Origin: an uncultured Thermoplasmata archaeon
Lineage (GTDB): Archaea > Thermoplasmatota > Thermoplasmata > Lutacidiplasmatales > UBA184
Length of the DNA stretch: 64,000 nt
Assembly (NCBI GenBank): GCA_963749205.1
Contig: CAVVLW010000007.1
Location: forward strand, 390,794-454,793
Reading direction: 5' to 3'
Each line of letters opens with the position of its first letter. The stretch's first letter is position 1. A program made the position numbers and the translations under genes. The notes beneath the pieces were generated by a model. That model was not told the DNA's origin and searched no databases. It saw only the letters and a program-made list of their open reading frames with translations. Positions 3,932-30,320 of this stretch are shown here, piece after piece.

Positions 3932-3950
3932 TCCGCCACCGTGCGGTGGC

Positions 3951-9126: not shown

Positions 9127-10839
9127 ATGCCCACGAATCCGCGCCTTCCCCTCGCCGAACGGCTCCGACCCACTCGACTCGACGAGGTCATCGGGAACCC
9201 CCAGGCCCGTACGCAACTCAGAGCTTGGGCCGAGCGATGGAGGTCCCAGGGTTCGCCTGCCCAACGGGCTGCGGTCCTGTCCGGCCCTCCGGGCGTCGGC
9301 AAGACGAGCGCGGCCCTCGCACTCGCCGCCGACTTCGGCTGGTCGGTGGTCGAGATGAACGCATCGGACGCGCGGAACGAAAAGGCGATCGAGCAGGTGG
9401 CGGGGCGTGCGTCGATCACCCATACCCTGCTCGAGGGACCGAAGAGCGGGGGGCCTACCCGGGCGCTCATCCTGCTCGACGAGGCCGACTCCTTGAGCGG
9501 CCGGTCGACCGAGGGCGCACGCGCCGCCCCAGCCCCGGTCACGCTGAACGAGTTCCTCCGAGGTCGCTACGGTGCGATCGATGCGCTCAACGTGGCGTGG
9601 GGACTGAGCCCGGGTGCGAAGCCCTCCCCGTTCGAGTCGTGGGAGAACGTGCCGCGCTCGCCCGGGAATCATGCATGGGCACGGCTCGCCACCGCTCGGA
9701 AGGATATCGATGATTGGAGAGGGTCGGGCCGCCCCCGGGACACCTCGGACCGGGGGGGACTTGCCGCGATCGCGCGTTTGGTGCGAGCGACGCGGCAACC
9801 GCTCATCCTGACGGTGAACGACGACCGGATCCTCACGCGATACTCGCCGGTATTCCGGACCGCGGTCGCTCGAGTGCGGTTTTACGCGATCCGGGACCGG
9901 GAGCTCTCCGCTCGACTCGCGGCCGTCGTTCAGCAAGAGAAACTGGACGTGCTCCCCGCGGCGATCGACGCGATCGTTCGCCGCGCCCACGGCGACATGC
10001 GGGCGGCGCTCAACGACCTGGACGCTACCTCCCCGCTGCCGCGGGGGCCGCTCCAGCTCTCGATCCTCGGCACCCGGGACCTCGCGGCGGACTTTGCGGC
10101 GATCACCGAGGAGGTGCTTTCGACGGCCCGGTACTATCGCTCGGTCGAGATCCGGGACCGGCTCGACGCCCCGCCCGACGACCTGTTCCCATGGATCGAG
10201 GAGAACCTCCCGCACTTCGCCCCCGACTCGGTTCACCGGGCGGCGGCGTTCGACCGTCTCGCCTCTGCTGAGCGGGCGCTCGCTCGAGCTCGCCGGTTCC
10301 GGGTTTGGGGGCTGTGGAGTTACGCTTCTGAGCTCATGACCGGGGGCGTCGGCCTGGCGATCCGAGGCGGGCCGGTGCCGGTCGCGGGCCGTGCCCAATT
10401 TCCCCGGTTCCTCGGGGAGATGGGCCGATCCCGTTCGGTGCGCGCAGTTCGGGAAGCGGTCGTCCGTAAAGCCGGCGCCCAGTTCCACCTGTCTCGGGAC
10501 AAGTCGCGAGAAACGGTGCTCCCGTTCCTCGAGAGCCTGTTCACCGCCCCAAGGGATCGTCGGAACGCCGAGGCACTCCGTGCGGTCGCGCGGAGCGTCG
10601 TTCGCGAGCTCAAGCTCACTCCCGAGGAGGTCGGCTATTTGGCCGACCGGGAACCGGATTCTGACCCCGTGATCGACCTGATGGAGATAGGATCCGGGGA
10701 CCCGGCGGCCCGCGACGCGGGGAGTGAGTCCGCGGAGTCCGTTCCGGCGCCTGCTCGGGACCCCACGGAGACGCGGGGAGTGTCGGAACGGGACCGGAAA
10801 CGCGTCCAACGTCAGCTCTCCGACTTCGGCGGGAGATGA
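9127..10839 (+). CDS. rfcL: Replication factor C large subunit
   Basis: LAERLRPTRLDEVIGNPQARTQLRAW..AAVLSGPPGVGKTSAALALAADFGWSVVEMNASDARN..ILLDEAD. CTTAAAC box 26 nt upstream of the ATG. Confidence 0.85.
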   Translation: MPTNPRLPLAERLRPTRLDEVIGNPQARTQLRAWAERWRSQGSPAQRAAVLSGPPGVGKTSAALALAADFGWSVVEMNASDARNEKAIEQVAGRASITHTLLEGPKSGGPTRALILLDEADSLSGRSTEGARAAPAPVTLNEFLRGRYGAIDALNVAWGLSPGAKPSPFESWENVPRSPGNHAWARLATARKDIDDWRGSGRPRDTSDRGGLAAIARLVRATRQPLILTVNDDRILTRYSPVFRTAVARVRFYAIRDRELSARLAAVVQQEKLDVLPAAIDAIVRRAHGDMRAALNDLDATSPLPRGPLQLSILGTRDLAADFAAITEEVLSTARYYRSVEIRDRLDAPPDDLFPWIEENLPHFAPDSVHRAAAFDRLASAERALARARRFRVWGLWSYASELMTGGVGLAIRGGPVPVAGRAQFPRFLGEMGRSRSVRAVREAVVRKAGAQFHLSRDKSRETVLPFLESLFTAPRDRRNAEALRAVARSVVRELKLTPEEVGYLADREPDSDPVIDLMEIGSGDPAARDAGSESAESVPAPARDPTETRGVSERDRKRVQRQLSDFGGR

Positions 10840-14009: not shown

Positions 14010-14587
14010 TTAACGGTTCGCTTGGGGCGGACCGAAGTCCTTGGCCATCAGGTCCTCGTCGAAGTAGTCGTCGCCGCGATGGACCGCCCGCGGCATCGTG
14101 CCGATGTACACGAACCCGAACTCCTCGTAGAGACGCCGAGCACGCCGGTTCACGGAGAACACCGAAAGTCGGACGAGTTCAAACTTTCCCCGGCATTGTC
14201 CGAGCGCGCTCTCGAGGATCGCACGGCCAATCCCGGTCCTCGGTGATCGCGATGGACCAGGATCCCGAGCTCTCCGACGTGCGAGGTCTCCGAGTCGTCC
14301 GAAGGACCGACCCGCCGGATCGTGCAGTGGCCCACGACGAGGCCGTCTCGTTCGGCGACCGCGACGATCGTGTCGCCGGCGAGGACGTGCCGGTAGAGGT
14401 TCGTGAACCACGCCACCTCGTCCTCGTAGGACGGTCGTTTCCGGAAGAGAGTGATGCCGATGTCCCGCTGGACGGTCCGCTCCTCGAACAGGAGGTAAAA
14501 CGTCTCACGGATGGCGTCGAAGTCCGACCACCGTAGCTCCCGGACGACGAACGGCCGGGGAGGCGTCGCGGGGGGGCCCAACGTCAC
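14010..14587 (-). CDS. GNAT family N-acetyltransferase (frame break near 14245)
   Basis: ..IVAVAERDGLVVGHCTI..GELGILVHRDHRG / TGIGRAILESAL..LVRLSVFSVNRRARRLYEEFGFVYIG. Confidence 0.7.
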
Positions 14588-14973
14588 GCGTAGCCGAACT
14601 GCCGCTTCGCGAACTCGGTCATCCGCTCGGGGGTCCACGGCGGGTCCCAGATCATGTCGACCTTCGCGGACTTGACGTCCGGGACCTTCTCGATCGCGGT
14701 CTTGATCTCTTCAGCGAGGATCCCGGCGACCGGGCACCCGGGCGCGGTCAGGGTCATTTTGAGCGTGAGGTCGTCGCCCGCCCACTCGAAGCCGTAGATG
14801 AGCCCAAGGTCCACGATGTTCATCGGGATCTCGGGGTCGTAGATCTGTTTCAGGTTCTCGGTAATCAGTCGCTCCCGGTCGGCGTAGGGTCCCGTGGTTG
14901 ACGGGGCGAACGCCGCGACGGGCGGGGCGGGGGCGGCTACCGGGCTCGCGGGGGGTGGGGTCGCTTCGGCCAT
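14584..14973 (-). CDS. DUF59/SufT (MIP18) family Fe-S cluster assembly protein
   Basis: LKQIYDPEIPMNIVDLGLIY..LKMTLTAPGCPVAGILAEEIK..VDMIWDPPWTPERM. Confidence 0.8.
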   Translation of the reverse strand: MAEATPPPASPVAAPAPPVAAFAPSTTGPYADRERLITENLKQIYDPEIPMNIVDLGLIYGFEWAGDDLTLKMTLTAPGCPVAGILAEEIKTAIEKVPDVKSAKVDMIWDPPWTPERMTEFAKRQFGYA

Positions 14974-15066
14974 CGTCCCAACGACCGGTCGGGGGCGTAT
15001 AAGGTCGCGCGACCTCTCCGGTTACCCTCACGTTAGGTCTCGGCTAAGGGTTTAAGGCCACCCCGG

Positions 15067-15988
15067 GTGGCGCGAGCGATGAAGGACGTTCACGCGATGC
15101 CGCCCGCTCGGGGCCGACTCACTCTGCGGTCGGTAGGGGTGTCGGGGATCCGCAAACCGCTCTCCGTCCAGCGCGGGGACCGCGTCCACACGCTCGCCGC
15201 CACGTTCGAGGTGGCGGTCGACCTCCCTGCCAGCCGGAAGGGATCGGACCTGTCCCGGAACGCCGAGGTCCTCGCCGAGATCGTCGACCATACGGTCGAG
15301 CGACCGGTCCTGAGCCTCGAGTCCGCGTGCTCGACGATCGCGCGCGAACTCCTCGTGCGCCACGCGTACGCGACCGAAGCCACGGTCGAGGCGTCCGCCG
15401 AGTACTTCCTCCGCAAGGGAATCTCGGAAGAGAAGCGGAGCTTCGAGGATTACCTTCTGCTCGCCGAGGCCCGGGCGACGCGCACCGACGGAAAAAAGGT
15501 AGAACTCCATCGCGCGGTCGGGGCCGAAGCGGTCGGCATGACCGCCTGTCCCTGTGCGATGGAGACGTGCCGGGAGAAATTGACCCAGGAATACCCGTTG
15601 CTCGCCGACCCTTCGCTCGCGACCCTCCCGATGATCTCCCACAACCAGCGCAACCGGACCCGACTGGTCTTCGAGATGGGGGTGGACACCGAGGTGGAAG
15701 TGGACGACCTGATCCAGGCGATCGAGTCGGCCCAGTCGAGCCCCACCTACGCGATCCTGAAGCGGGGAGACGAGGGGCAGGTCGTCCTGGACGCGCACCG
15801 CCATCCGAAGTTCGTCGAGGACGTCCTCCGCGACCTGCTTGCCGGACTGCCGGCCGCCTTCCCGGACCTTCCCGATTCGGTGATCGTCCGGGCCGGCACA
15901 ATCAGTGAGGAATCGATCCACAAGTACAACGTGGAAGCCTCCCACCGGGTCTCCTTCGGTGAACTGCGCCGGTCCGCCTGGCCACTGA
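15067..15988 (+). CDS. mptA: GTP cyclohydrolase MptA/FolE2 (type IB); true stop not resolved
   Basis: SRKGSDLSRN..AEAVGMTACPCAMETCRE..ISHNQRNRTRL..TISEESIHKYNVEA. The ORF reads straight on into the next gene; stops exist at 15960 and 15986 in the other two frames. Confidence 0.8.
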
Positions 15989-16005
15989 AGGGTCCGGGGG
16001 CTACC

Positions 16006-17302
16006 GTGTACTACGCGCTGGATGCGATCCGCCGTCGTCCGGGCCGCTCGGCGCTCACTTCCCTCGGGATCGGGCTCGCGGTCGGTCTGGTCGTGCTCCT
16101 TCTCGCGATCTCCGCAGGGGTACAGACGAGTTCGACCACGCTCGCGACCGCGAGCGGCGTCGACCTGATCGCGGCGAGCGCGAATACGACCATCACCACG
16201 GGGAGCGTTCCGCCGATCCCCGACGCCCATGTGCTCGCGACCGCGATCCCCGCCGCGGACTCGAACATCGCCGTGGCGAGCCCGTGGCTGATCAGCGAGC
16301 TCGTGTTCGGAAATGCGTCGCTCTATGCGGCAGCGAACTCGAGCCGACGTACCTCCCGACTGGAGTCCGACCGGGGCCGGGTCGGTGGGGTGGATCCCTT
16401 CCGACAACAACGGGATCGAGATTCCCGAGATCTACAACGGCACCGGGTTCACGCTCCCGGGAGACCCGCATTACGCGAACGGGAGCTACCAGGGCCTGTT
16501 CACGCACGAGATCGTCCTCGACCAGGGGCTTGCCGGCGTGCTCGGAGTGACCGTCGGTGACCTCGTCTGGGTGAATCCCGCCCAGGCACCAGGCGCCTCG
16601 GCGCTTCCCGGATGGTATGCGAACGCGACCGTGTTCCGCGTCGTGGGGATTTCTGGCCCGTTCTGGCTCATCCCTTCCGCGCTCCTCTCGTTCCTCTACC
16701 TTTCCGAGCTCCAGACGGTCGTGGGGGGAGCGAGCCGGTCCACCGACTACGCGTCGCTGCTCCTCATCCATCTCTACGACCCGACGACCGCCGCGGCGGA
16801 CCAGACCCGGGTCGAAACGGCATTCCCGTCCCTCACCGTGATCACGCTCGCCGAGGTCCTGGGGGCGATCCAGCAGGTCGTGAACATCTACCGAACCTTT
16901 GGGACCCTCATCGGGGCGATCGGGATCATCGTGGCCGCGCTGTTCGCGACCACGGTCCTGCAGATGTCGGTCGATGACCGAAGTCGCGAGATCGCCCTCC
17001 TTCGTGCGGTCGGATACACTCGGGCGGGAGTCGGCTCGATCGTCGCGCAGGAAGGGATCGTGCTCTCCCTCATCGGTCTTGCGATCGGATTCCCGATCGC
17101 GTACGCGGGAGCCTACGAGCTGAATCGATTCCTAACGCATCTGATCGTGGGGCTCCCCGTCGGTTTCTCCTTCGTCTCGTTCGATACGACGGTGCTGCTC
17201 TCGGGGATCGCTCTCGTGCTCGCGATCGGCTTGATCGCCGCTATTCTTCCCGCCGCCCGCGCGATGTCCCTGCCCGTCGCCGAGGAGCTGCGCGCCCCAT
17301 GA
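16006..17302 (+). CDS. FtsX/MacB-type ABC transporter permease (frame break near 16350)
   Basis: GTG 16006. YALDAIRRRPGRSALTSLGIGLAVGLVVLLLAIS is a typical FtsX N-terminus. C-terminal LLRAVGYTRAGVGSIVAQEGIVLSLIGLAIGF. Confidence 0.7.
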
Positions 17303-18545
17303 TGCGATTCGGCTTCGGCTCGGCGCTCCGCCACCTTCGGTTGCAGCAGCTCCTCGCGATCGCCGCGGTCGGAACCGCGGTCGCCCTGCCGGTGGTCCTC
17401 GTGAGCGTCGGAGGGGGCGTTTCGGCGCACGAGCTCGCCGACTTGGAGAACGCCGGATACCAGATCGTCGTCAGCGCCGAGGGGGTGCATGGCATCACGA
17501 ACGCCCACAATCTCACGGACCGGATCCTGGCCCTCGGGTCGGTGGCGGCGGCGTCGCCTGTATTGAGCGTCCCGCTCGACGCCTTCCCGGGGAGCGGGGG
17601 ACCGACCCCCGTTCTCGCGGAGGGGGTGATCTCCGACCAGTTCGTCCCCACCCTGGGTCCGTCGGAGGGCGGTCTCTTCCCGACGCCGCTGCCGCTCGGA
17701 GACCCGAGCGATCGGGTCCACTACGACAACGGCACCTACGCCGGACCGCCCACCAACGACGTCCTCGTCTCCTCTCCACTCGCCCAGGCCCACGGGATCG
17801 TCGCAGGCTCGACCCTGTGGCTCGGTGCGACGACGAACCGGACCCAGGCCGTCGAGTACAACGTGACCGGGACCTTCGGCGTGCCGCCGACCGCGCTCGG
17901 ACCCACCGGGGCCTTCGCGATCGTCATCCCGCTTTCGGACCTGCAAGTGTTGAGCGGGTTCGCCGCAGGTTCCACGACCACCGCCCACGACGCGGCCGAC
18001 ACGATCGAGGTCGCCCTCACCGGATCCGCGTCGACGGACCCGACGATCCTCGACCATGTGCGTGCGGAGATCCAGGCGATGGTCCCGTACTACGGGGTGA
18101 GCTCGCTCGACCAGGAAGCGCAGGAGCTCCAATCGGCGAGCGCGGTCCTGACCGGATTCTACCTTGCGCTCTCTTCCGTCGCGCTCACGGTCGGCCTCCT
18201 GTTCCTCGCGCTCGTCCTCGTCCGACGGGTCGAGTCCGACCGGCGGTCGATCGGGATCCGTCGCGCGCTCGGTCTGCCCGGACGATGGATCGCGCGGGAG
18301 ATCGTGACCGACGGGCTCGTGCTCGCGCTCTTCGGCTCGCTGGTGGGCCTCGCGGGGGGTACTTGATCGTCGAGGGGCTCGCGACCTGGGGGTCGGCCGC
18401 CGTTCGGCTCGCCGCCCGGTTGGCGCTCTTCGACCCGGTCACCCTGGGTGCGATCGTGGCCGGCGTCCTCCTGATTTCGTTGCTCGCCAGCGCCATCGCG
18501 ACGCGAGCGGCCCTGCGGCTCCAGATCACGGAGGCGCTGCGGTGA
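17299..18545 (+). CDS. FtsX/MacB-type ABC transporter permease (frame break near 18360)
   Basis: ALRHLRLQQLLAIAAVGTAVALPVVLV.., ..IGIRRALGLPGRWIAREIVTDGLVLALFGSLVGLAGG, then LIVEGLA...ATRAALRLQITEALR* in another frame. Confidence 0.7.
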
Positions 18546-19246
18546 GCGGCGGTGCGTCCGCTGCGATCGAACTCGTCGGCGCGAGCCGGATGTACCGGGC
18601 CGGACAACCTGAGGAAGTGCCCGCGCTCCGGGAGGTCGACCTCACGATCGCGCCGGGTGAGTTCGTCTCCGTCGAGGGTCCGAGCGGCTGCGGCAAGACG
18701 ACGTTGCTCAATCTCATCGGGCTCCTGGATTCCCCGACCTCGGGCGAGGTCCGCTGGGACGGCCGGCCCGTGGGCAGCCGCTCCGACCGCGAGCGTTCCC
18801 GCCTTCGCCTCGAGGGTGTCGGATTCATCTTTCAGCGATTCTACCTGCTCCCTACCTTGACCGCCCGCGAGAACGTCGAGCTCCCGATGCGCGCCCTGCG
18901 CGTGCCCCGCGCTGAGCGGACCCGCCGCGCCTCCGAACTGCTCGGAGAGGTGGGCCTCCAGGGAAAGGAGAACTCGTTCCCCCACCAGCTGTCGGGGGGG
19001 GAGGAACAGCGGGTCGCGGTCGCGCGGGCTCTCGGGAACCGGCCGGGCCTTCTGCTCGCGGACGAGCCGACGGGCGAGCTCGATAGCGGCAACGCCGCAG
19101 CGATCCTTGCCCTGCTCGAACGGGTCCGGGCCGATCGGGACGCGACCCTCGTCCTCGTCACGCACAATCCCGAGGTCTCGAGCCACGCCGGCCGCCACCT
19201 CGCGATGCACGACGGGCGGATCGCGTCCGACGTGCGGGGGGCGTAG
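18542..19246 (+). CDS. ABC transporter ATP-binding protein (MacB/LolD type)
   Basis: GPSGCGKTTLLNLIGLLD, LSGGEEQRVAVARAL, LLLADEPTGELD. Confidence 0.9.
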   Translation: MSGGASAAIELVGASRMYRAGQPEEVPALREVDLTIAPGEFVSVEGPSGCGKTTLLNLIGLLDSPTSGEVRWDGRPVGSRSDRERSRLRLEGVGFIFQRFYLLPTLTARENVELPMRALRVPRAERTRRASELLGEVGLQGKENSFPHQLSGGEEQRVAVARALGNRPGLLLADEPTGELDSGNAAAILALLERVRADRDATLVLVTHNPEVSSHAGRHLAMHDGRIASDVRGA

Positions 19247-19248
19247 CC

Positions 19249-21027
19249 GTGGCGCGGATCGCGATCCTGCTCAACGACCGGTGCCACCCGAAGGAGTGCC
19301 AGTGGGAGTGCCAGGCGTACTGCCCGCCGGTGCGCATGGGCCAGGAGTGCATCATCGAGGGGCCGACGGGCAAACCGATCATCTCCGAGACCCTCTGCAT
19401 CGGATGCGGGATCTGCGTCCACAAGTGCCCGTTCGATGCGATCAAGATCCTCAACACCCCCGAGGCGGACCCGAGCGAGATCGTCCACCGGTACGGCTAC
19501 AACGGCTTCCGGATGTACCGCATGCCGATCCCACCGGCCCGGGGATCACGGGGCTCCTCGGCCCGAACGGGACCGGAAAGTCGACCGCCCTCCGGCGACT
19601 CTCCGGGCAGGAAGTGCCGAACCTCGGGGACTACGAATCCCCCGGAGCCTGGCCGAAGGTGCTCGAACACTACCGCGGCACCGCGCTCCGCGCCCACTTC
19701 GAACGGGTATCGAAGGGGGAGCTCACGCTCGGTCCTGAAGCCGCAGTACGTCGACCGGATCTCCGACGAACCGTTCACCGCGCTCGACTACGTCCTCGCG
19801 GCGGGTCCGGGGGGACGAAAGGCACTCGACGAGGTCGGGCTCGCGAACCGGGCCGACCGCCGCCTGTCGGAGCTGTCGGGAGGCGAGCTCCAGCTCGTGT
19901 CGATCGCTCGGACGATCGCTACCGACGTCGACCTCTACCTGATCGACGAGCCGTCGAGCTACCTCGATATCGTGCACCGCCTCGAGGTCGCGCGGATCCT
20001 GCGACGCTTGGGAGAGACGAAGAGCGTCCTCGTCGTCGAGCACGACCTCGCACTCTTGGACTACCTCGCCGACCAGGCCCACCTGATCTACGGAGAGCCC
20101 GCGGCGTTCGGCGTCATCAGCCATCCCCTCCCGATGCGCGCGGCGATCAACACCTACCTTACCGGCTACCTCAAGGACGAGAACGTTCGGTTCCGCACCG
20201 AGCCCGTCCGGTTCGTCTCCCACCCGCCGAAGCCGGCCGCCCGGGCGAACACGCTTGTGCGGTTCCCGGCCCTCGAGAAGGAGTATCCCGAGTTCCATCT
20301 CTCGGTGGGTGCGGGGTCGCTCGCGAAGGGCCAGGTCGTGGGGATCGTCGGACCGAATGCGACCGGGAAGACGACCTTCGTTCGGATGCTCGCGGGCGTC
20401 GAACCTCCGACGCGGGGCGCCCCCCCCGAGGGGGTCACGGTCAGCTACAAGCCGCAGTACCTCAAGGCGACCCAGTCGGCAAGCTTGCGCGAGCGCGCGG
20501 CCGCGCTCGCGAACGACCCGACGTTCGACGCGAAGCTGTTCGAGCGGGAGCTCGTCCCCGGCCTGCACCTCGAAGAGATCCAGGACGTCGCGCTCACCGA
20601 CCTCTCGGGCGGCGAGCTCCAACGCTCCGCGGTCGCCCTCGCGCTCGCGCGGCCCGCGACCCTCTACCTCCTGGACGAACCGTCGGCGTACCTGGACGCG
20701 GACGAACGGATGTCGATGGCGCGGCTCGTCCGCCGCCAGGTCGAGCGTCAGGCGGTGAGCGCTCTCGTCGTCGACCACGACGTCTACTTCCTCGACCTCG
20801 CGTGCGACGAACTGATGGTCTTCGGCCCGGATGCGCCGGACGGTTCGAAGGGGCGCGGCGACGGCCCGTTCGCGATGCGGGAGGGGATGAACCGCCTGCT
20901 TGCCGGGGTCAACATCACGTTCCGCCGCGACCCCGAGACGCTGCGCCCCCGGATCAACCGCGAGGGGTCGGTCCTGGACCGCGAACAGCGGGCGCGGAAG
21001 GAGTACGATTACGAAGCCGCCCAGTGA
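19249..21027 (+). CDS. abce1: ABCE1/Rli1 ribosome-recycling ATPase, with a compensated pair of frame breaks (near 19535 and 19732)
   Basis: N-terminal 2x[4Fe-4S] CPPVRMG..CIGCGICVHKCPFDAI. The first Walker A (GITGLLGPNGTGKSTALRRLSGQEVPNLG) appears only in the alternate frame between the two breaks. Second NBD GIVGPNATGKTT, LSGGELQR, LLDEPSAYLD. Confidence 0.9.
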   Translation: MARIAILLNDRCHPKECQWECQAYCPPVRMGQECIIEGPTGKPIISETLCIGCGICVHKCPFDAIKILNTPEADPSEIVHRYGYNGFRMYRMPIPPARGSRGSSARTGPESRPPSGDSPGRKCRTSGTTNPPEPGRRCSNTTAAPRSAPTSNGYRRGSSRSVLKPQYVDRISDEPFTALDYVLAAGPGGRKALDEVGLANRADRRLSELSGGELQLVSIARTIATDVDLYLIDEPSSYLDIVHRLEVARILRRLGETKSVLVVEHDLALLDYLADQAHLIYGEPAAFGVISHPLPMRAAINTYLTGYLKDENVRFRTEPVRFVSHPPKPAARANTLVRFPALEKEYPEFHLSVGAGSLAKGQVVGIVGPNATGKTTFVRMLAGVEPPTRGAPPEGVTVSYKPQYLKATQSASLRERAAALANDPTFDAKLFERELVPGLHLEEIQDVALTDLSGGELQRSAVALALARPATLYLLDEPSAYLDADERMSMARLVRRQVERQAVSALVVDHDVYFLDLACDELMVFGPDAPDGSKGRGDGPFAMREGMNRLLAGVNITFRRDPETLRPRINREGSVLDREQRARKEYDYEAAQ

Positions 21028-21106
21028 GACGGAGGAACCCTCCGAGGCCGCCCCCCCCGCGCTCGACGCGGGGGGTCGCTTTCACGCGCACGGCACCATC
21101 TCGTAC

Positions 21107-21583
21107 GTGACGGTCGGGGTCTATCTCGTCCTCCTGCTGGTCCTGTACCTCATTGTCGTGCCGAGCTCGTTCGACCAGCGACCGGAGCTGATCTACCTCC
21201 TGATGCTGGTCGTGGTCTTCTTTCTGTTTCGGTACGCGACCACGAATTACTCGATCGACGACTCGTACCTGCACGCGCGCCGGGTCCTCGGTCCCCGGAC
21301 GGTGCCGCTCAGCGAGGTCCGCAAGATCGAGTTCATGGCCCTCCGCGACCTCTCACCGACCGGGTTCTTCGGCTCGTGGGGATATCGCGGGCGAATGTGG
21401 AGTCCCGTCATCGGCTGGTTCGAGGCGGTCTACACCGACCCCGTCGGGCTTCTCGTGACCGGCGGCCCGCACCCGCTGTTCATCTCCCCTAAGGACCGGG
21501 TGGCGTTCGCCCGCGAGCTCTCTCGCCGCGTTCGGTCCTACTCCGGGCCATTGTCGGTGGACGACGGGTCCCCGAGTGTCTGA
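21107..21583 (+). CDS. Membrane protein with bacterial-PH-like domain
   Basis: GTG 21107. Two TM helices (VGVYLVLLLVLYLIVV, LIYLLMLVVVFFLF), then YSIDDSYLHARRVLGPRTVPLSEVRKIEF. The longer ORF start overlaps ABCE1. Confidence 0.45.
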   Translation: MTVGVYLVLLLVLYLIVVPSSFDQRPELIYLLMLVVVFFLFRYATTNYSIDDSYLHARRVLGPRTVPLSEVRKIEFMALRDLSPTGFFGSWGYRGRMWSPVIGWFEAVYTDPVGLLVTGGPHPLFISPKDRVAFARELSRRVRSYSGPLSVDDGSPSV

Positions 21584-21584
21584 A

Positions 21585-23074
21585 TCAGTACGTCGGGAGG
21601 CTCGGGTCGACCCGCTCGGCCCACGCGGTGATCCCGCCGGACAGGTTGCGCACGTTCGAGAATCCGAGGTCGAGGAGCAGGCGGGTCGCCTGCGACGACC
21701 GGCCCCCGGTTCGGCAGTAGACGACCAGCCGCCGCGCCCCCGTCAGTTCGTTCAGGTGGTCGGGGAGCTGCCCCCGAGGGATCAGGTGGGCGTTCGGGAG
21801 GTGGACGATCTCCCACTCGTTCGGCTCCCGAACGTCCACCAGCATCGGCGGGTCGGCGCCGGCGAGCTCGTCCCGGAGCTCTTCGGGCGAGATCTCGGGG
21901 AGGTTTGCGCCCTGCGACTCGGGACCGGCGGCGGGGATCCCACAGAAGGCCGGGTAGTCGATGAGCCCCTTCTGCGGCGCGTTCGGAGAGCAGATCACGC
22001 ATGCCGGGTTCTTGCGGAGCTTCAGCTCGCGGAACCGCATCGCGAGCGCGTCGTAGAGGAGGAGCCGGCCGATGAGGGGCTCGCCGATGCCGAGCAGGAG
22101 CTTCACGGTCTCCGTCGCCTGGATGAGCCCGATGAGCCCCGGGCAGGACCCCGAGGACCCCGGCCTCCGCGCACGAGGGGACGAGGTCGGGGGGCGGCGG
22201 CTCGGGATAGAGGCAGCGGTAACAGGGCCCTTTCGAGGCATCGAAGACGCTCGCCTGGCCCTCGAATCGGTAGATCGAGCCGTAGACGTTCGGTTTGCCC
22301 AGGAGCACGCAGGCGTCGTTCACGAGGTAGCGGGTCGGGAAGTTGTCGGTGCCGTCCACGACCACGTCGTACGGGCGCAGGACCTCGAGCGCGTGGTCGG
22401 CCGTCAATCGATGTCCGATCGGAACGACGCGAACCCCAGGATTCAGGGCCTCGAGACGGTCCTTCGCCGCGTCGAGCTTCGGGCGGCCGACGTCGGCCGT
22501 CGTGTAGAGGACCTGCCGTTGAAGGTTGGAAAGATCGATCTCGTCGAAATCGGCCAGGCCGATCTCTCCGACCCCGGCCGCCGCGAGGTAGAGCGCCGTC
22601 GGAGCGCCGAGGCCCCCGGCCCCGACGAGCAGGACCTTCGACCGGCGGAGGCGCTTCTGCCCGGCGACACCGACCTCGGGAAGGAGGAGGTGCCGGCTGT
22701 AGCGGCGGAGCTCGTCGCGGGTGAGGGTGTCGGCGGGGGGGTTGGGCAGGACGGTCAGCGGGTTCGGGACGGACCGTCCGCGGGCCCCCGCCGGGGCCCC
22801 GCCCGCGATCGCCGGGAACGATCGAAACGATGTCGCCCTCCTTCACGGGGGTCGCGTCGCGCTGGAGGGAGCGCACGTCCTCGTCGTTCAAGTAGACGCT
22901 AACGAAGTTCCGCAACTTCCCTTCGGGCGTGAACAGGTGCTTTTTGAGGCCCGGGTACGTGTCCGCGACGCCGCGAACGAGCGCACCGACCGTGGCCCCG
23001 TCCGACGGCACTTCGGCGTGCCCGTCCGCGAACGGACGCAGCGGGGTGGGAATCTTCACCGTCACGCTCGGCAT
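21585..23074 (-). CDS. CysO/MoaD-like ubiquitin-like domain fused in frame to MoeZ/UbaA-like E1 adenylyltransferase plus rhodanese domain (frame breaks near 22815 and 22138)
   Basis: Ubl: MPSVTVKIPTPLRPF..NFVSVYLNDEDVR..EGDIVSIVPAIAGG. Linker APAGARGRSVPNPLTVLPNPPADT has no stop or start codon. E1: LTRDELRRYSRHLLLPEVG..VLLVGAGGLGAP..CYRC..CVIC. Rhodanese: VVYCRTGGRSS. Confidence 0.8.
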
Positions 23075-23079
23075 CTACG

Positions 23080-23569
23080 TCACCGTCCCCCGGAAGCTCT
23101 TAGGCTCTCGGTTACCCGCGCATCAGCGGCCGGGGTCGTGACCAACGTCACCTCGCGGAAGACCCCGGAATCGGGGTCGAGCTCGAACGCCCCGATCGCG
23201 TGCGCGTCGGTCGCCGACACCGAGACGACCACGTAGGTGTACCAGGGCCAAGCGTGCGCCTGGTCGAACGCGGACGGGCGAGCGGGGTGGTCCGGATGCG
23301 AGTGATAGAAGCCCGCGACGACGCGGTCCGTTCCCCCGAGCGCGTTTTCGGCCGAACGCAGCTCTTCTGCTCGGATGACGAACCGGCGTCGGCGCTCCCC
23401 CTCGAACTCGTTCGGGGCGCGTTCCGTCGCGACGATGGACCGGGGACCGTTCGGGGCGGTAGGGTCGGCCCCCGCGATGAGGAAGCCGCAGCACTCATCC
23501 GGGTAGGTCTCCCGGGCGTGCCGCCGGATCTCCGCGACTAGGGGTTCGGGGAGGCTGTACCGCTCTCAT
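23080..23569 (-). CDS. JAMM/Mov34 (Mec+-like) metalloprotease (frame break within the first codons, near 23558)
   Basis: ATG overlaps the cysM stop (ATGA). Hand translation gives YSLPEPLVAEIRRHARETYPDECCGFLIAG...GFYHSHPDHPARPSAFD, the E..HxHx7Sx2D JAMM motif. Confidence 0.75.
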
Positions 23570-24440
23570 CTTGGCTCTCCAGTAGAAAACCGGCGTTCGC
23601 CGTCCGGGAGCAGCGTGACGACGACCGCGCCTGGCCTCGCGAGGCCGACCTCGATCGCCGCGACGACGGCCGCCCCCGACGAGACGCCGACCGCGAGACC
23701 TTCTTCGAGGGCGAGGCGCCGCTGCATCGCCTGGGCCGCCTCGGTCTCGACGCGGACGGTCGAGTTGACCAGACGTTCGTCGTAGGTGCCTGGCCGAAGG
23801 GCGGACGGAAGGTGCTTCAGACCCTCGATCCCATGGATCGGACCCGTCGGCTCGATGCCGACCACCCGAATCCCGGGCGTCGTTCCTTGAGGAAACGTCC
23901 CGTTCCCGATATCGTTCCTCCGGTGCCGACCCCAACGACGAGATCGGTGATCCGGCCCGAGGTCCGGTTCCAGATCTCCGGACCCGTGTGTCGATAGTGG
24001 GCGTCCGGGGATTCGAGGGATTGTTGTAACTGGTCGCCGTAGAAGTAACGCTGGGGGTCGGCGAGCGACCTCCGACGTGCCTCGCGCTGGGCTCCGTCGG
24101 TCCCCTCGGCGGGGTCCGTGAAGACGACGATCGGCCCTGTACGCCGGATCCGGGCGACCCGCTCGGGGCTCGCGTTGCGCGGCAGGCAGAGCTCGACCTC
24201 GAACCCGAGGCGGGCGCCGAGCATGGCGTACGCGACCGCAGTGTTCCCGCTCGAGGCATCGAGGAGGACGCGTCCCGGGCCGAGCTGGCCCACGTCGAAC
24301 GCGTCGCGAACGATCTCGAGGGCGGCCCGGTCCTTGACCGATCCGGTGGGGTTGAGGAACTCGGCCTTGGCCCACAGCTCGAACTCGCCGCACGCCACCT
24401 CCGATAGGCGTCGTAGCGGTAGGAGCGGGGTCCCGCCCAC
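23566..24440 (-). CDS. cysM: PLP-dependent cysteine synthase (CysM/CysK family), three frame breaks (near 24030, 24008 and 23878)
   Basis: GGTPLLPLRRL..AKAEFLNPTGSVKDRAA..LDASSGNTAVAYA..; YNNPSNP appears only in the alternate frame; ..HYRHTGPEIW..VGVGTGGTISG..; then PGIRVVGIEPTG..SSGAAVVAA. Confidence 0.8.
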
Positions 24441-24508
24441 CGAGGAGAGGAGAGGGTCGTCGACCGCCGGGTTCCGTCCTTGAGCCCGAGCGGACGAAGG
24501 GACCCGGA

Positions 24509-25157
24509 CTACCGGAGCTGGATCAGATGCGTACACCGCATCCCCCCGCGGCCGATCGAGTCTTCGAGGTCCACTCCGACCTCGCCGAGGAGCGCCTCGG
24601 TGAGGTTCTTGTCGAACACGTCGCAGAGGAGGTACGGGTGGCTGAGCGCGCTGTGGCGGAAGATGCAGTTCGTCCGAACGATTCGGACGTGTCCGTCCGG
24701 CAGTCTTCTCCAGAGAGCAGCGGAATCCGAGGTCGTTCAGGGCCGCGACCAGGCGCCGGGCCTTCTCGTCCGTCGTCGCTGCTTTCGGGATTTCTTTGGC
24801 AATCGCGCCCGCCATCCGGCGCGCGGACTCCGCGAACAGGGCGCTGACGAATCCTTCGCCCTCGCTGGCCAGGAGCTCGTCGACCACAGCGTCCAGGATC
24901 AGGTCGTAGCTCTTCGGGAAGAGGTCTTGGCCCTGGCCAGTAAGGAGGTAGCGCTTTCGTGGCCGGCCCACGCCCTCCCGACGGAACGACGGGACGACAA
25001 GGCCCCGCTCCTCCATCCGGTCCAGATGGCCCCGGGCGGCGCTCTCCTGGATCCCGAGTGTTTTCGCTAGGTCGCGCGCGGTGCGCGGGGCTATCGCGAG
25101 CTCTTCGAGAATGCGCCCACGGGTGCCGACCAACGACCCGCTCTCTGCCGCGCTCAT
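24509..25157 (-). CDS. SufR-like ArsR-type wHTH regulator with C-terminal Cys motif (frame break near 24715)
   Basis: wHTH RGRILEELAIAPRTARDLAKTLGIQESAARGHLDRMEERGLV. The alternate frame gives VRIVRTNCIFRHSALSHPYLLCDVFDKNLTEALLGEVG..GGMRCTHLI, matching the SufR-type C-x12-C-x..-C arrangement as I recall it. Confidence 0.65.
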
Positions 25158-25179
25158 GGTGTCCGGTTCCGCTCTCCGC

Positions 25180-25194
25180 GGGCCCCTAAGGCCC
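25180..25194. promoter_or_regulatory. Inverted repeat GGGCC-CCTAA-GGCCC in the sufR-like/sufC divergent intergenic region
   Basis: 5-bp perfect arms, 23-37 nt upstream of the regulator start. A CTTAAATAA box at 25221-25229 faces sufC. Confidence 0.3.
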
Positions 25195-25259
25195 CTTCAG
25201 GATTTACACACCGCGCCATGCTTAAATAACGGTATCGGCTCGTATTCTGACGGACCGTC

Positions 25260-26033
25260 ATGGCCATGGCAACAGGAACACACACCCTCATCGTAGAAAA
25301 CTTGCACGCCGAGGTGGCCGGGAAGGAGATCCTGAAGGGGGTCAATCTGACCGTAAAGAGCGGCGAACTGTCCGCACTCATGGGCCCGAACGGCTCCGGA
25401 AAGAGCACCCTCGCCTACGCCCTGATGGGTCACCCGAAGTACAAGGTCACGAAAGGGACCGCGACGCTCGACGGGGAGGACCTTCTCAAGCTCCCGGTCG
25501 ACAAGCGATCGAAGGCGGGCCTGTTCCTCGGATTCCAGTATCCGCAGGAGGTCTCGGGACTCTCGCTCTCGAAATTCCTCTGGACATCTTACATGCTTCG
25601 CCACACCGCCCAAACGGCGGACGTGGCCACTTTCGACAAGGACCTGAAGACCCACCTCTCCTACCTCGGCATGGACGAGTCTCTGCTCAAGCGCTCGCTG
25701 AACGAGGGATTCTCGGGCGGAGAGAAGAAGCGGGTCGAGGTGCTCCAGATGGCGACCCTGAGCCCGCGGTTCGCGATCCTTGATGAGCCTGATTCCGGGC
25801 TCGACATCGACGCGGTCCGATCGGTCGGCGAGACCGTCGCGAAGCTGCGCCGACCGGACGCGGGGATCCTCGTCATCACCCACTATCAGCGGATCCTACA
25901 GTTCTTAAAACCCGACAGCGTGCACGTCATGGTGGACGGCGCGATCGCGCTCTCGGGCGGCCGCGAGCTCGCCGAGGAGCTCGAGGCGAAGGGGTACGAC
26001 TTCGTGAAGCTCGGGATCGCGGGCCTGTCGTAG
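25260..26033 (+). CDS. sufC: Fe-S cluster assembly ATPase SufC
   Basis: GPNGSGKSTLAYALMGHPKY, GLFLGFQYP, FSGGEKKRVEVLQM, ILDEPDSGLDID. Confidence 0.95.
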   Translation: MAMATGTHTLIVENLHAEVAGKEILKGVNLTVKSGELSALMGPNGSGKSTLAYALMGHPKYKVTKGTATLDGEDLLKLPVDKRSKAGLFLGFQYPQEVSGLSLSKFLWTSYMLRHTAQTADVATFDKDLKTHLSYLGMDESLLKRSLNEGFSGGEKKRVEVLQMATLSPRFAILDEPDSGLDIDAVRSVGETVAKLRRPDAGILVITHYQRILQFLKPDSVHVMVDGAIALSGGRELAEELEAKGYDFVKLGIAGLS

Positions 26034-26064
26034 GCGACCCCCGACTTCACGGGACCGGGCTTGC

Positions 26065-27292
26065 ATGGACGTCGGACGGATTCGAGCGGACTTTCCGATC
26101 CTCGGGCGCTCGTTCCACGGTCATCCCCTCGTTTACCTCGACTCGGCGGCGACGTCGCAGAAGCCGACCGCCGTCCTCGATGCGGAGTCGCGATTCTACA
26201 CTGAGCAGAACGCCAACGCCCACCGGGGCGTCTACGCACTGAGCGTCGAGGCGACCGACGCCTACGAAGGCGCCCGCGAGCGGGTGGCGCGGTTCCTACA
26301 CGCCCGGGACCCTTCCGAGGTCGTCTTCGTCCGCGGCACGACCGAAGCGCTCAACCTTGTCGCGGCGAGCCTCGGCCATTCGACCCTCGAGCGCGGCGAC
26401 CGGGTCCTCAACGACGGTGATGGAGCACCACTCGAACATCGTCCCCTGGCACATGCTGCGGGAACAGTCCGGAATCGGACTCGATTTCGTCGACATCGAT
26501 GCCGACGGGCGCCTGCGTCTTGACGAACTCGACCACCTCCTGGGACCGAAGACCAAGGTCGTGACGATCACCCATGCCTCGAACGTCCTCGGCACCGTGA
26601 ACCCGGTCCGCGAGATCGCAGACCGAGCCCATGCGGCGGGCGCGATCGTCGTCGTGGACGCGGCCCAGTCCGCACCGCACCGCCCGGTCGACGTTCAGGC
26701 GCTCGGCGCCGATCTCCTCGCGTTCTCCGGTCACAAGGTGCTCGGTCCGATGGGGATAGGGGTCCTCTGGGGCCGAGCGGACCTTCTCGAGAAGATGCCT
26801 CCCGCGTCCGGGGGCGGCGAGATGATCCGGGAGGTCCATCAGGACCGCGTCAGCTATCGGGAGCCCCCCGCCCGATTCGAAGCGGGGACGCCCAATGTCG
26901 CGGGGGCGGTCGCGCTTTCGACCGCGCTCGACTATCTGGAGCACCTCGGATGGGAGGAGGTCGCCGCGCACGAGCGAGGGTTGCTTGACTACTCTTCAGA
27001 GCAGGCTCGCCAACGCCTAGGAGAGAAGCTCCGCGTGTACGGGCCGACCGGGTCTAAGGACCGCCAGGGACTCGAGTCGTTCTCGCTGGAAGGGGTCCAT
27101 CCCCACGACGTCGCGACCCTGCTCGATGCGGACGGGGTCGCCGTCCGAGCGGGCCATCACTGTTGCCAGCCGCTGATGGACCGGCTCGGCGTCCCGGCGC
27201 TCACTCGGGCCAGTCCGTACATCTACAACGACCAGAACGACATCGACCGGCTGTTCGACGGACTCGAAAAAATCGTCAAGGTGTTCGCCTGA
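26065..27292 (+). CDS. sufS: Cysteine desulfurase SufS (frame break near 26405)
   Basis: VYLDSAATSQKP..NANAHRG.., MEHHSNIVPW, ITHASNVLG, FSGHKVLGPMGIGVLWG, RAGHHCCQPLM. Confidence 0.9.
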
Positions 27293-27455
27293 TCGGAGCT
27301 GCCGTGCCGCCCCATACTCTCACCCTGCGCATTGTAGCGGGGCGGCCTACAGATGGCTGATTCTTTCGTGCTCCTTCGCCGAGGAACAGTTGTGTCGCGC
27401 CCGAGACAACCTCTCATTTAAATACACTGGGGTGCTGGAATTGGTCGAGGCAATC

Positions 27456-28868
27456 ATGGCACAGGCAGCTTCCGAGGTCACTCCGCTCGACTACACGCGG
27501 TACGACTTCAAGAATCCGGAGACGTATCGGCTCCGGATCGCCAAGGGCCTCTCCCGCGAGGTCGTCGAGCAGATCTCCAAATTCAAGGACGAGCCCGACT
27601 GGATGCTGGACTACCGTCTGCGTGCCTACGAGCACTTCGTCCAACGCCCGATGCCCGACTGGGGCCCGAGCCTCGACGAGATCGATTTCGACGCGTACAC
27701 GTACTACGCTAACCCGATGCTCGAAGGGGAGACGAAGAAGAGCTGGGACGACCTGCCGGCGGACATCAAGAACACGTTCGAAAAGCTCGGGATCCCGAAG
27801 GCCGAGCGCGAGTACTTCGGCGGCGTCGGCGCTCAGTACGACAGCGGCACGATGTACCACAAGCTCCGCGAGGACCTCTCGGCCAAGGGAATCATCTTCT
27901 GCGACACCGACACCGCGGTCAAGGAGCACCCCGAGATCGTCCGAAAGTACTTCGGCAAGATCATCCCGTACAACGACAACAAGTTCTCCGCGCTCAACAG
28001 CGCCGTCTGGTCCGGGGGCAGTTTCGTCTACATCCCGCCCGGCGTCGACTGTAACATCCCGCTCCAGGCGTACTTCCGCATCAATGCGAAGAACGTCGGG
28101 CAGTTCGAGCGGACGCTGATCATCGCCGACAAGGGCGCGAAGGTCCACTACATCGAAGGTTGCACTGCCCCGGTCTATTCGACCGACTCGCTGCACGCCG
28201 CGGTCGTCGAGGTCGTCGCGGAACCGTACGCCAAGGTCCGCTACACAACGGTCCAGAACTGGTCGAAGAACGTCTACAACCTCGTCACGAAGCGTGCGGT
28301 CGCCTACGAGCAGGCCCTGGTCGAATGGGTCGACGGCAACATGGGCTCGAAGGTGACGATGAAGTACCCTTCCGTCTTCCTCAAGGGGCGCGGTGCCCGC
28401 GCCGACATCCTCTCGGTCGCATTCGCGAGCGAGGGTCAGATCATCGACTCCGGAGCGAAAGCCGTCCACTCGGCGCCGGACACCTCGAGCAAGATCATCG
28501 CGAAGTCGATCGCTATCCGCGGCGGGCAGACCAGCTACCGCGGGCTCCTGCATGTCGCCCCCGGCGCGACGGGCGTGAAGGCCGCGGTCCGATGCGACGC
28601 CCTGCTCCCGGACGCATTCGGTCGCTCGGACACCTACCCCTACAACGAGATCCACGAAGAGGATGCGACCATCACGCACGAGGCCGTCGTCGGCAAGATC
28701 GGAGAGGAGCAGATCTTCTACCTGATGAGCCGCGGTCTCAACGAGTCGGACGCCATCCACCTGATCCTAATGGGTTTCCTCGCCGAGTTCGCAAAGGAAC
28801 TCCCGATGGATTACGCCCTCGAGCTGAACCGCCTTATCCAGCTCGAGATGACCGGCTCGGTCGGTTAG
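27456..28868 (+). CDS. sufB: Fe-S cluster assembly scaffold SufB
   Basis: MAQAAS..KGLSREVVEQISKFKDEPDWMLDYRLRAYEHF..; GSKVTMKYPSVFLKG..; HEAVVGKIGEEQIFYLMSRGL. Intact. Confidence 0.95.
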   Translation: MAQAASEVTPLDYTRYDFKNPETYRLRIAKGLSREVVEQISKFKDEPDWMLDYRLRAYEHFVQRPMPDWGPSLDEIDFDAYTYYANPMLEGETKKSWDDLPADIKNTFEKLGIPKAEREYFGGVGAQYDSGTMYHKLREDLSAKGIIFCDTDTAVKEHPEIVRKYFGKIIPYNDNKFSALNSAVWSGGSFVYIPPGVDCNIPLQAYFRINAKNVGQFERTLIIADKGAKVHYIEGCTAPVYSTDSLHAAVVEVVAEPYAKVRYTTVQNWSKNVYNLVTKRAVAYEQALVEWVDGNMGSKVTMKYPSVFLKGRGARADILSVAFASEGQIIDSGAKAVHSAPDTSSKIIAKSIAIRGGQTSYRGLLHVAPGATGVKAAVRCDALLPDAFGRSDTYPYNEIHEEDATITHEAVVGKIGEEQIFYLMSRGLNESDAIHLILMGFLAEFAKELPMDYALELNRLIQLEMTGSVG

Positions 28869-28881
28869 AACCGGCGAGCGG

Positions 28882-30320
28882 TCAGGGACGCCGGTCCTTC
28901 CCGGGGTGCGGGGGCAGAGAGCCTACCGGAAGTTTGGCGTCGAAACGCCACTCGGGGGCGCTCTCGGTCCCCGTGACCACCAGTTCAGGCAGGGCGGGGA
29001 ACGCCTCGGGCGCCCAGGTGATCTCTTCTCCGTCCCACCGGGCCGCGACGAACGGGTAGAGGATCTCCTGCAGGCCTGCGATCGGGGCGCGGTCGAGGAC
29101 GTAGGAGAGGAATCCCTCCCCGATCATCCGGACGCAATCCGAGGGAGCGATCCCGCGCGATTCGAGGTAGAAGACCTTCTCGGGGTCGACGGGGGCAACG
29201 GACGTGGAGTGCGTCGCCTTGACGTCCCGGCAAAGGATCTCGAGGATCGGGATCGTGTCCGAACGGGCTCCCCGGGATAGCAGCATCGCGTGCTCCGAGA
29301 TGAACACCAAGGTTCGGTTCGCCCCGGCCTCGATCCGGACAAGTCCCCGGCTCATCCCGCGCGAATCGTCCCGGAACACCCCGCGCGTGACCGATTGGCC
29401 GTGGGTGTCCGTCGCGACATGGGTGAGGTCGACCGAGCTGTCGAACGATTGGTTCTTGGCGCCGTAGAACGTCTGCAGGTCGTTGACGTGCGACCCGGTG
29501 CCCGGAGAGCGTCGTGTGGTTGCGGATCTTCGTGCGGAACCCCCCGAGACCGTTCCACAGCCATGCCAACCGCCCCTCCGCTCCAGTCGTGGCAGTCCGC
29601 CGGTAGATCGACACGGTGCGCAGGTCCGGGGCGTGGACGGTGAGGAAGACGGTCTTCGAGCGCTCGCCGAGGTCTAGGTCAGTGCTCGAAGCGTATAGTC
29701 GCTGACCCGGTGGAGCGTCCGGGGTCGTGTAGACCTCCTCCGTGAACAGCAGCTGGGTCTTCGCGCCCGCCCGGATCGAACCGCCGGACCGAGAGCGCCT
29801 CGTGGGGAACCGAGAGCACGGTGAGGTCCTGGACGCGCATCGGCTCCGTGAACCCGTCCGGGATCTCGAGGTGATATCCTCGATTCAAGAGTGCCGTCGC
29901 GAGGGCGGAAAGCCGGTCGACCGGCTCCTCAGCGCCTCGAAGGAACCGCTCTACGTCCGGGGCCGGCCCGCCCCAGACATCCGAGAGGGTTCGGACCGAG
30001 ACACCGGCCGACTTGAGCTCGTGCGGCAGGTGGACGTGGGTGCCGGCTGAGTCCAGGACCACTCGGATCGAACCCGGGATCGGCTGTGGAAGGGGGACGT
30101 GCGCCCCGTGGGCCGCGGGGTCGAGTTCCGAGAGGTCGACGTTCGTAAAGTAGCCATATCCGCGGAAGAGCGGATTGGGCTCTATCTGCAAACGCTGAAA
30201 TCGGTCGTAGGCGTCCTCCCGGGCGGAGACGAACGAAGGTGGGTCCGAGAGCGATCGAGAGAGCTCGTGGACCTGGTCTGGGGAGAGCCACTGCTCGAAT
30301 TTGGGGACGGCGGCGGCCAT
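28882..30320 (-). CDS. sufD: SufD (SufB/D family), convergent with sufB; two frame breaks (near 29775 and 29500)
   Basis: ..FYGAKNQSFDSSVDLTHVATDTHGQSVTRGVFRDDSRG..LLSRGARSDTIPILEILCRDVKATHSTSVAPVDPEKVFYLESRGI. Confidence 0.75.

Follow-up and report, generated by a model that had tools for sequence, protein, structure and literature searches.

A CysO-type sulfur carrier encoded in one frame with its own MoeZ-type E1 in a Thermoplasmata archaeon: a putative precursor for an adjacent JAMM protease

Ubiquitin-like (Ubl) sulfur carriers such as MoaD, ThiS and CysO are activated by E1 enzymes, which adenylate the free carboxylate of the C-terminal glycine. Since the E1 needs this free carboxylate, a carrier whose Gly-Gly is held in a peptide bond cannot be charged. 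Here we analyze a gene that encodes a carrier of this kind in a 64,000-nucleotide stretch of an uncultured Thermoplasmata archaeon (contig CAVVLW010000007.1, positions 390,794 to 454,793; hereafter the window). In this gene a CysO-type carrier continues past its Gly-Gly into a MoeZ-type E1 followed by a rhodanese.

In Mycobacterium tuberculosis, CysO is a free protein of 93 residues with a Gly-Gly end, encoded at a distance from moeZ. The archaeal cluster resembles the CysO/CysM/Mec+/MoeZ pathway of this organism in its parts, namely a CysO-type carrier, a CysM-type pyridoxal phosphate (PLP)-dependent enzyme, a JAB/JAMM metalloprotease and an E1-rhodanese, and likewise in the clustering of the genes for carrier, protease and synthase. 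It differs in its archaeal host and in the fusion, through which the carrier Gly-Gly leads into the N-terminal end of the E1; its synthase resembles CysM in sequence. A related case is the quinolobactin system QbsE/QbsD, where the residues after the carrier Gly-Gly are removed by a clustered JAMM enzyme before E1 activation. Unfused relatives of the fusion gene bear QbsE-like tails (for example GGC, GGMY and GGAGNKRAR), whereas the 'tail' in the fusion itself is an enzyme of 400 residues. Both operon classes appear in the survey of Iyer et al. 2006 (PMC1779556), QbsE/QbsD as row 4a and, as row 4c, a combination of ThiS/MoaD, E1-rhodanese, JAB and cysteine synthase that matches the content of the cluster in the window. 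The M. tuberculosis pathway corresponds to types 4c and 4d of that survey.

Carriers fused to a pathway partner have also been described. MoaX, a MoaD-MoaE fusion of M. tuberculosis, gains activity only after a cut between Gly82 and Ser83 (PMC4326299), and the Deinococcus radiodurans MoaD-MoaE fusion DR2607 is cut by the JAMM enzyme DR0402, which exposes the C-terminal glycine (PMC8832034). The fusion gene shares with them a sulfur-carrier Ubl with Gly-Gly placed in frame upstream of a partner. There, however, the partner is the sulfur acceptor MoaE and the cleavage is experimental, while here the partner is the activating E1 and the cleavage is predicted. Makarova & Koonin 2010 (PMC2948915) further listed 'Ubl-E1-TBP' fusions, which Thaumarchaeota have in common with bacteria.

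The SAMP/UbaA/HvJAMM1 system, also of archaea, pairs a beta-grasp Ubl bearing Gly-Gly with a MoeB-type E1 and a JAMM protease, and HvJAMM1 of Haloferax can cut linear SAMP fusions (PMC8832034). The E1 studied here groups with bacterial MoeZ-like sequences in a rough tree, and the locus shows no sign of protein conjugation. A SAMP/UbaA-type conjugation function is not supported by the equivalog models either, as the E1 reaches 323 bits against UbaA (NF047750, cut-off 450) and the Ubl 48.5 bits against SAMP1 (NF041918, cut-off 60).

Carrier, linker, E1 and rhodanese in one reading frame

Translation of the region 23300-21400 in three frames locates the gene on the minus strand (Table 1) and distributes it over all three. 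Frame 0 starts from the ATG at 23074 (MPSVTVKIPTPLRPF...EGDIVSIVPG), frame 1 carries the end of the Ubl into the E1 (...PAIAGG-APAGARGRSVPNPLTVLPNPPADTLTRDELRRYSRHLLLPEVG...GAGGLG...CYRC...AEAGVLGVLPG), and frame 2 leads from LIGLIQATE through CVIC and CRTGGRS to PTY and the stop codon. Once two surplus bases are removed, an open reading frame (ORF) of 1,488 nt or 495 amino acids results, in which CysO-type Ubl, linker, MoeZ-type E1 and rhodanese follow each other with no stop codon between them.

All three domains proposed in the earlier note on this DNA were recovered with Pfam models: ThiS over residues 6-92 (E 1e-13, 52 bits against a cut-off of 22.5), ThiF over residues 125-358 (E 3e-85, 286 bits) and Rhodanese over residues 395-486 (E 1.5e-20, 74 bits). 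The Ubl domain has its best PDB match in M. tuberculosis CysO (3DWG_C, E 2e-19) and aligns with it end to end, its last residues coinciding with the terminal Gly-Gly of CysO. Among NCBIfam models the E1 scores as a MoeB/MoeZ-type adenylyltransferase/sulfurtransferase, with 484 bits for PRK08762 (MoeB, cut-off 449), 487 bits for PRK07878 (MoeZ, cut-off 647) and 499 bits for PRK07411 (cut-off 633). In an alignment of close homologues GAGGLG, CYRC and CVIC are conserved in the E1, and the cysteine of CRTGGRS is conserved in 98%.

As encoded, Gly-Gly is followed by 403 further residues without a stop, which leaves the Ubl without a free C-terminal carboxylate, so that a free carrier could arise only via proteolysis. 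The earlier note had read AIAGG (residues 88-92, encoded at 22812-22798) as continuing without a stop into E1 and rhodanese, and had argued that the E1 has no independent start; retranslation bears out both statements. In the E1 frame an in-frame TGA at 22845-22843 is followed by no ATG, GTG or TTG until the TTG at 22407. The 93 nt from Gly-Gly to RYSRH (22797-22705) contain none of these codons in any frame, the only signal being one out-of-frame TGA. Wherever undetected indels may lie, the E1 therefore lacks a canonical start of its own.

Homologues encode the same architecture. The corrected sequence was compared with 5.8 billion proteins, and the best 120 clusters, 69-88% identical to the query, all have precomputed ThiS and ThiF domains. 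Nearly all (118 of 120) are single ORFs of 480-505 amino acids that span about the whole query and also contain Rhodanese, the other two being truncated entries of 439 and 419 amino acids. Where named, these clusters come from metagenome-assembled genomes (MAGs) of Thermoplasmata archaea, with the NCBI label 'MoeB [Thermoplasmata archaeon]', and several derive from contigs of 0.2-1.7 Mb. Orthologues thus encode the fusion and not two genes with a stop after Gly-Gly, and every one has the linker, variable in sequence. The first 219 residues of one orthologue (P0001) were used for an exhaustive HMMER search of 1.84 billion representatives at 50% identity, and among its best 150 clusters at least 60 have the junction ...[PS][AS][IVLM]AGG-linker-RYSRH. 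GTDB species representatives were also scanned, with a five-sequence alignment, and fused loci turned up in Thermoplasmata, Acidobacteriota (many), Gemmatimonadota, Bacteroidota, Chloroflexota, Verrucomicrobiota, Elusimicrobia and Eisenbacteria. The architecture is widespread in public genomes, where it is abundant and annotated simply as MoeB, and the gene in the window is an archaeal (Thermoplasmata) member of this previously catalogued type. What is specific to it is that the partner is the carrier's own E1.

An assembly artefact, with a stop after Gly-Gly and a separate E1 start in the true sequence, or a dead gene could be suspected in a window this rich in indels, all the more as homopolymers of G and C abound in the linker DNA. 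We regard this as extremely improbable, and the fusion as almost certainly real: the 120 best clusters are independent, come from other assemblies, some on contigs of up to 1.7 Mb, and encode the same continuous protein, and no linker frame offers a start codon. Separate genes were rejected on the same two grounds.

The two frame changes in the fusion gene, at a CCC and a GGGG run, both fall in homopolymers and are sequencing or assembly errors. The earlier note had proposed the removal of one C at 22816-22814; this joins the Ubl frames and, together with the removal of one G at 22140-22137, gives the 495-residue ORF. Its remark that such indels are common in this assembly also proved right. 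The window is syntenic with the Thermoplasmata MAG contigs L002 and L004, and a tblastn comparison of L002 proteins with the window revealed nine frame switches in 15.7 kb (14587-30320), about one per 1.6 kb, two each in SufBD and the fusion gene, two in FtsX genes and one each in SufS, the helix-turn-helix (HTH) regulator and CysM. One more affects the first codons of the JAB gene, where MRAV... lies in one frame and ...SLPEPLVAEIRRH in another. Because these indels strike conserved housekeeping genes they reflect the assembly and not biology, and the equal rate in the essential SufS and SufBD favors sequencing error over gene decay. Real frameshifts, either of a pseudogene or programmed, were rejected since SufBD, SufS, FtsX, HTH, CysM and JAB are likewise hit and no orthologue requires a shift. 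In practice both should be treated as assembly errors and 23074..21585 annotated as one ORF; more generally, the reading of ORFs in such a window calls for frameshift-tolerant comparison. A 446-residue ORF at 23817-25157 (minus strand) is an artificial merge, made by indels, that joins the HTH regulator to the N-terminal portion of the CysM-like protein, and its counterpart in L002 consists of two overlapping genes of 215 and 322 amino acids.

Proposed maturation of the carrier

The junction was studied in an alignment of the best 120 homologous clusters and the window protein. All 121 sequences have Gly-Gly, and PA[IV]AGG is essentially invariant. The residue after Gly-Gly is Ala, Ser or Thr in 118 of 121 and the next one Pro in 103 of 121, beyond which conservation is lost: the mean frequency of the top residue is 0.35 in the linker, against 0.76 in the Ubl domain and 0.88 in the E1. 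The linker, Pro/Ala-rich and 23-24 residues long in the window protein, has a high content of P, A, S and R across the alignment, and the spacing from Gly-Gly to RYSRH varies from 16 to 33 residues. Among 19 diverse fusions (39-74% identity) some have linkers of just 1-3 residues, and G91 and G92 are the sole invariant columns of the Ubl domain. An AlphaFold2 (AF2) model of orthologue P0001 shows confident Ubl, E1 and rhodanese domains, residues 1-87 forming a beta-grasp-like alpha/beta unit; the tail and linker (residues 88-112) are disordered, with a predicted local distance difference test (pLDDT) below 50.

Fused and unfused loci were compared in a set of 84, whose stop-to-stop ORFs were searched with JAB, PALP, Ubl, E1 and rhodanese queries, counting a JAB within 4 kb. 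The 40 fused loci have a JAB in the flank in 38 cases, mostly abutting upstream, a PALP gene in 33 and a separate Ubl ORF nearby in none. Unfused loci fall into two groups. Those with a separate Ubl directly upstream of the E1 (n = 23, Ubl in all) have a JAB in 16 cases and PALP in 15, while those with no adjacent Ubl (n = 21; Streptomyces, Planctomycetota and others) have no JAB, PALP or Ubl at all.

Separate carriers often extend beyond Gly-Gly as well. Of the 13 junctions read, three are Gly-Gly followed by a stop and ten have a tail of 1-10 residues (C, V, D, AA, MY, NIV, ARDRV, CVNRAG, SCADGE, AGNKRAR and similar), and such tailed CysO-like genes occur in many Acidobacteriota, Bacteroidota and Chloroflexota genomes. 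Because unfused relatives carry these tails, trimming after Gly-Gly is probably common in this operon family, with the E1 fusion as its extreme case, on a continuum from Gly-Gly-stop through short tails to the full fusion. At several tailed loci the E1 lies in the same frame, one stop codon after the carrier, a pattern expected if simple loss or gain of a stop codon converted fused and split forms into each other. In a rough neighbor-joining tree of E1 domains, without support values and indicative only, the two forms interleave, and hence look interchangeable. A third arrangement, different from both the fusion and the lone separate carrier, is seen in L052 (3692-4270; Chloroflexota, Leptolinea), where two tandem CysO-like genes, ending ...PTVSGG and ...PGIAGG before their stops, precede the E1.

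A conserved fusion of a carrier to its E1 implies obligatory proteolytic maturation, and we infer the following route, which we consider probable as a whole. The polypeptide would be made as a precursor, and the adjacent JAB/JAMM enzyme would cut the peptide bond after Gly92, releasing the carrier, its Gly-Gly carboxylate now free, from the E1-rhodanese. The freed E1 would adenylate the carrier carboxylate, and the persulfide of the rhodanese in the E1 protein would turn the adenylated carrier into a thiocarboxylate. The CysM-like enzyme would then take this thiocarboxylate as sulfide donor, as in the CysO/CysM/Mec+ pathway of M. tuberculosis, after which the same JAB would hydrolyze the bond between carrier and cysteine, again a cut after Gly-Gly. 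That cleavage occurs, that the JAB performs it and that the route ends in cysteine formation are all predictions from comparative data.

The JAB is the favored processing enzyme because its motif is intact, its gene ends 5 nt before the fusion ATG and it accompanies 38 of 40 fused loci but none of the 21 Ubl-less ones; in addition, 10 of 13 unfused carriers bear tails that need trimming, and MoaX and DR0402 provide precedents. Another protease, or autoprocessing, could instead cut after Gly-Gly, leaving the JAB to hydrolyze only carrier-cysteine adducts like Mec+. The protease acting on mycobacterial MoaX was reported as unidentified (PMC4326299), and two of the 40 fused loci, both on short contigs, have no JAB within 4 kb. 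Given that most of the fusion genes, in different phyla, have a JAB directly adjoining them, that linear Ubl fusions of Deinococcus and Haloferax are substrates of JAMM enzymes (PMC8832034), and that the proposed maturation and the Mec+ reaction both hydrolyze the bond after the carrier Gly-Gly, we find this division of labor very unlikely.

Alternatively, the fusion might never be cleaved. The Ubl would then be a permanent module of the E1 for regulation, docking or auto-inhibition, its Gly-Gly tail would occupy the adenylation site, and a free carrier encoded elsewhere would be the true substrate. Conservation of Gly-Gly could then stem from binding in the active-site channel of the E1. A precedent is found in Iyer et al. 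2006 (PMC1779556), where Ubl domains at the N-terminus of some ThiF proteins (Campylobacter type), distinct from ThiS, were judged not to be carriers because a solo ThiS is encoded alongside. The fusion studied here differs from that type in its CysO-like domain, invariant Gly-Gly, rhodanese tail, adjacent JAB and CysM genes and the absence of a solo carrier from the operon. In the unfused loci, moreover, a separate Ubl occupies the same operon slot directly upstream of the E1 in 23 of 44 cases, against none of 40 fused ones. We therefore favor a carrier role for the fused domain, since it is a full CysO homologue with an invariant Gly-Gly and a hypervariable sequence behind it, since fused and separate forms interleave, and since no separate Ubl accompanies it in the 40 fused loci or the window. 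Within the window, none of the stop-to-stop ORFs of at least 50 residues ending in Gly-Gly, or in Gly-Gly plus at most three residues, is beta-grasp-like. The variable length of the linker and the JAB beside 38 of 40 fusions also speak against a permanent module, which we hold to be unlikely.

Several points nevertheless weigh against a cleaved carrier feeding cysteine synthesis, the Campylobacter-type fusions among them. The search for a free carrier spans 64 kb of the genome, which leaves room for such a gene elsewhere. The searchable literature yielded no biochemical or proteomic evidence of cleavage for the CysO-E1 fusion family, and for CysO-MoeZ or Ubl-E1 fusions the literature searched holds catalogue mentions only and no experimental study. 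The CysM-like enzyme is nearer to enterobacterial CysM than to that of M. tuberculosis, so that it may use free sulfide or thiosulfate in place of a protein thiocarboxylate. Finally, the P0001 model, with a predicted template modeling score (pTM) of 0.56, defines neither the relative placement of its domains nor a docking of the Ubl on its own E1 in cis.

A more speculative idea, which we rate as unlikely, is that the fusion is a zymogen-like control device in which the uncut Gly-Gly tail and linker block, or sit at, the E1 active site. Cleavage by the JAB would be a committed switch, perhaps gated by redox state or by metal supply near the Suf genes, and would release carrier and E1 strictly 1:1, the new C-terminus being passed in cis to the adenylation site. 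If true, this would be a prokaryotic protease-gated activation of a ubiquitin-like pathway.

The earlier note had pictured the gene as a polyprotein that the JAMM enzyme must cleave, and as a prokaryotic analogue of ubiquitin-fusion precursors. The first picture fits the invariant Gly-Gly, the JAB in 38 of 40 loci and the intact motif 5 nt upstream, although the implied novelty was overstated; the second is a fair description of a class that already exists in MoaX and the Deinococcus MoaD-MoaE fusion. The architecture fits these precedents and overturns nothing, with moderate interest for how ubiquitin-like systems evolved. Together, the invariant Gly-Gly, the hypervariable linker, the near-universal JAB linkage and the continuum of tails suggest that the JABs of CysO-type operons not only hydrolyze adducts but also mature carriers in general.

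The surrounding cluster and its origin

The cluster reads HTH - CysM - JAB - (CysO~MoeZ~Rhd), with the fusion gene last and all genes on the minus strand.

Table 1. Positions of the fusion gene, its parts and its neighbors in the window, with the tailed carriers of the comparison loci
Feature	Position	Strand	Basis or remark
Fusion gene	23074..21585	-	stop codon 21587-21585
CysO-like ubiquitin-fold sulfur-carrier domain, residues 1-92, PAIAGG end	22798..23074	-	Pfam ThiS
Gly91-Gly92 codons; predicted cleavage after Gly92, predicted thiocarboxylate terminus	22798..22803	-	Gly-Gly invariance
Linker APAGARGRSVPNPLTVLPNPPAD	22729..22797	-	low-complexity, hypervariable; no start or in-frame stop codon
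MoeZ/MoeB-type E1 adenylyltransferase domain, residues 116-365	21978..22728	-	Pfam ThiF; RYSRH, GAGGLG, CYRC, CVIC
RYSRH	22704-22690	-	
GAGGLG	22623-22606	-	
CYRC	22224-22213	-	zinc site with CVIC
CVIC	22001-21990	-	zinc site with CYRC
C-terminal rhodanese domain	21615..21890	-	Pfam Rhodanese; active-site loop CRTGGRS
CRTGGRS	21716-21696	-	
Assembly indel 1, CCC run with one surplus C, inside Ubl domain	22814..22816	-	orthologues single-frame ...IVPAIAGG
Assembly indel 2, GGGG run with one surplus G, inside E1 (GVLGVLPG/LIGLIQATE)	22137..22140	-	orthologues continuous
Frameshift in first JAB codons	23553-23569	-	
JAB/JAMM (MPN+) metalloprotease, predicted processing enzyme	23080..23569	-	Pfam Prok-JAB, E 1e-20, 74 bits
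CysM-like PLP-dependent cysteine synthase (PALP), one assembly frameshift	23566..24536	-	Pfam PALP, both halves
MarR/ArsR-type HTH regulator, first in cluster, one assembly frameshift	24512..25157	-	Pfam MarR_2/HTH_5
Suf set (SufC, SufS, SufB, SufBD)	25260-30320	+/-	divergent from the cluster
Tailed carriers in L007, L011, L012, L015, L019, L022, L025, L026, L037, L041, L042	~3,900-4,300 each		

The JAB protein keeps the motif E...HxH...S..D intact (E(CCGF)...HSHPDHPARPSAFD), and among solved structures its L002 orthologue comes closest to 2KCQ of the Mov34/MPN/PAD-1 family (E 6e-23). Its ATG at 23569 overlaps the stop codon of the CysM-like gene (ATGA) directly upstream. The JAB sequence itself ends in ...SLRA(S/P)GGR before the stop, in the window (23080-23110, minus strand) as in L002 (7960-7995), which places a Gly-Gly one residue from the end; this may reflect chance, a self-processing site or a substrate mimic.

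The CysM-like gene matches the L002 PALP protein with 69-73% identity in two frames (tblastn). The best solved relatives of its orthologue are CysM enzymes (2JC3, E 4e-67), with M. tuberculosis CysM (3DWG_A) at E 2e-47. The HTH regulator, 81-91% identical to the L002 protein, again in two frames, holds the same position in L002 and L004. Beyond it lies the Suf set, likewise in both contigs. Because this complete set adjoins the cluster divergently, the arrangement hints that a shared HTH regulator might co-regulate cysteine supply and iron-sulfur (Fe-S) assembly.

With respect to origin, the Thermoplasmata clade of the window sits among bacterial fused sequences (Eisenbacteria, Gemmatimonadota) in the rough, unsupported E1 tree, and bacterial MoeB/MoeZ models give the E1 a higher score than archaeal UbaA does. 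Both observations suggest that the whole cluster was acquired from bacteria.

Downstream of the fusion gene the window encodes ABCE1. Directly behind the fusion gene, L001-L003 carry a PHP-domain gene (9552-10247), which is missing from the window (~21590) and L004; a small bPH_5/unknown ORF takes its place there.

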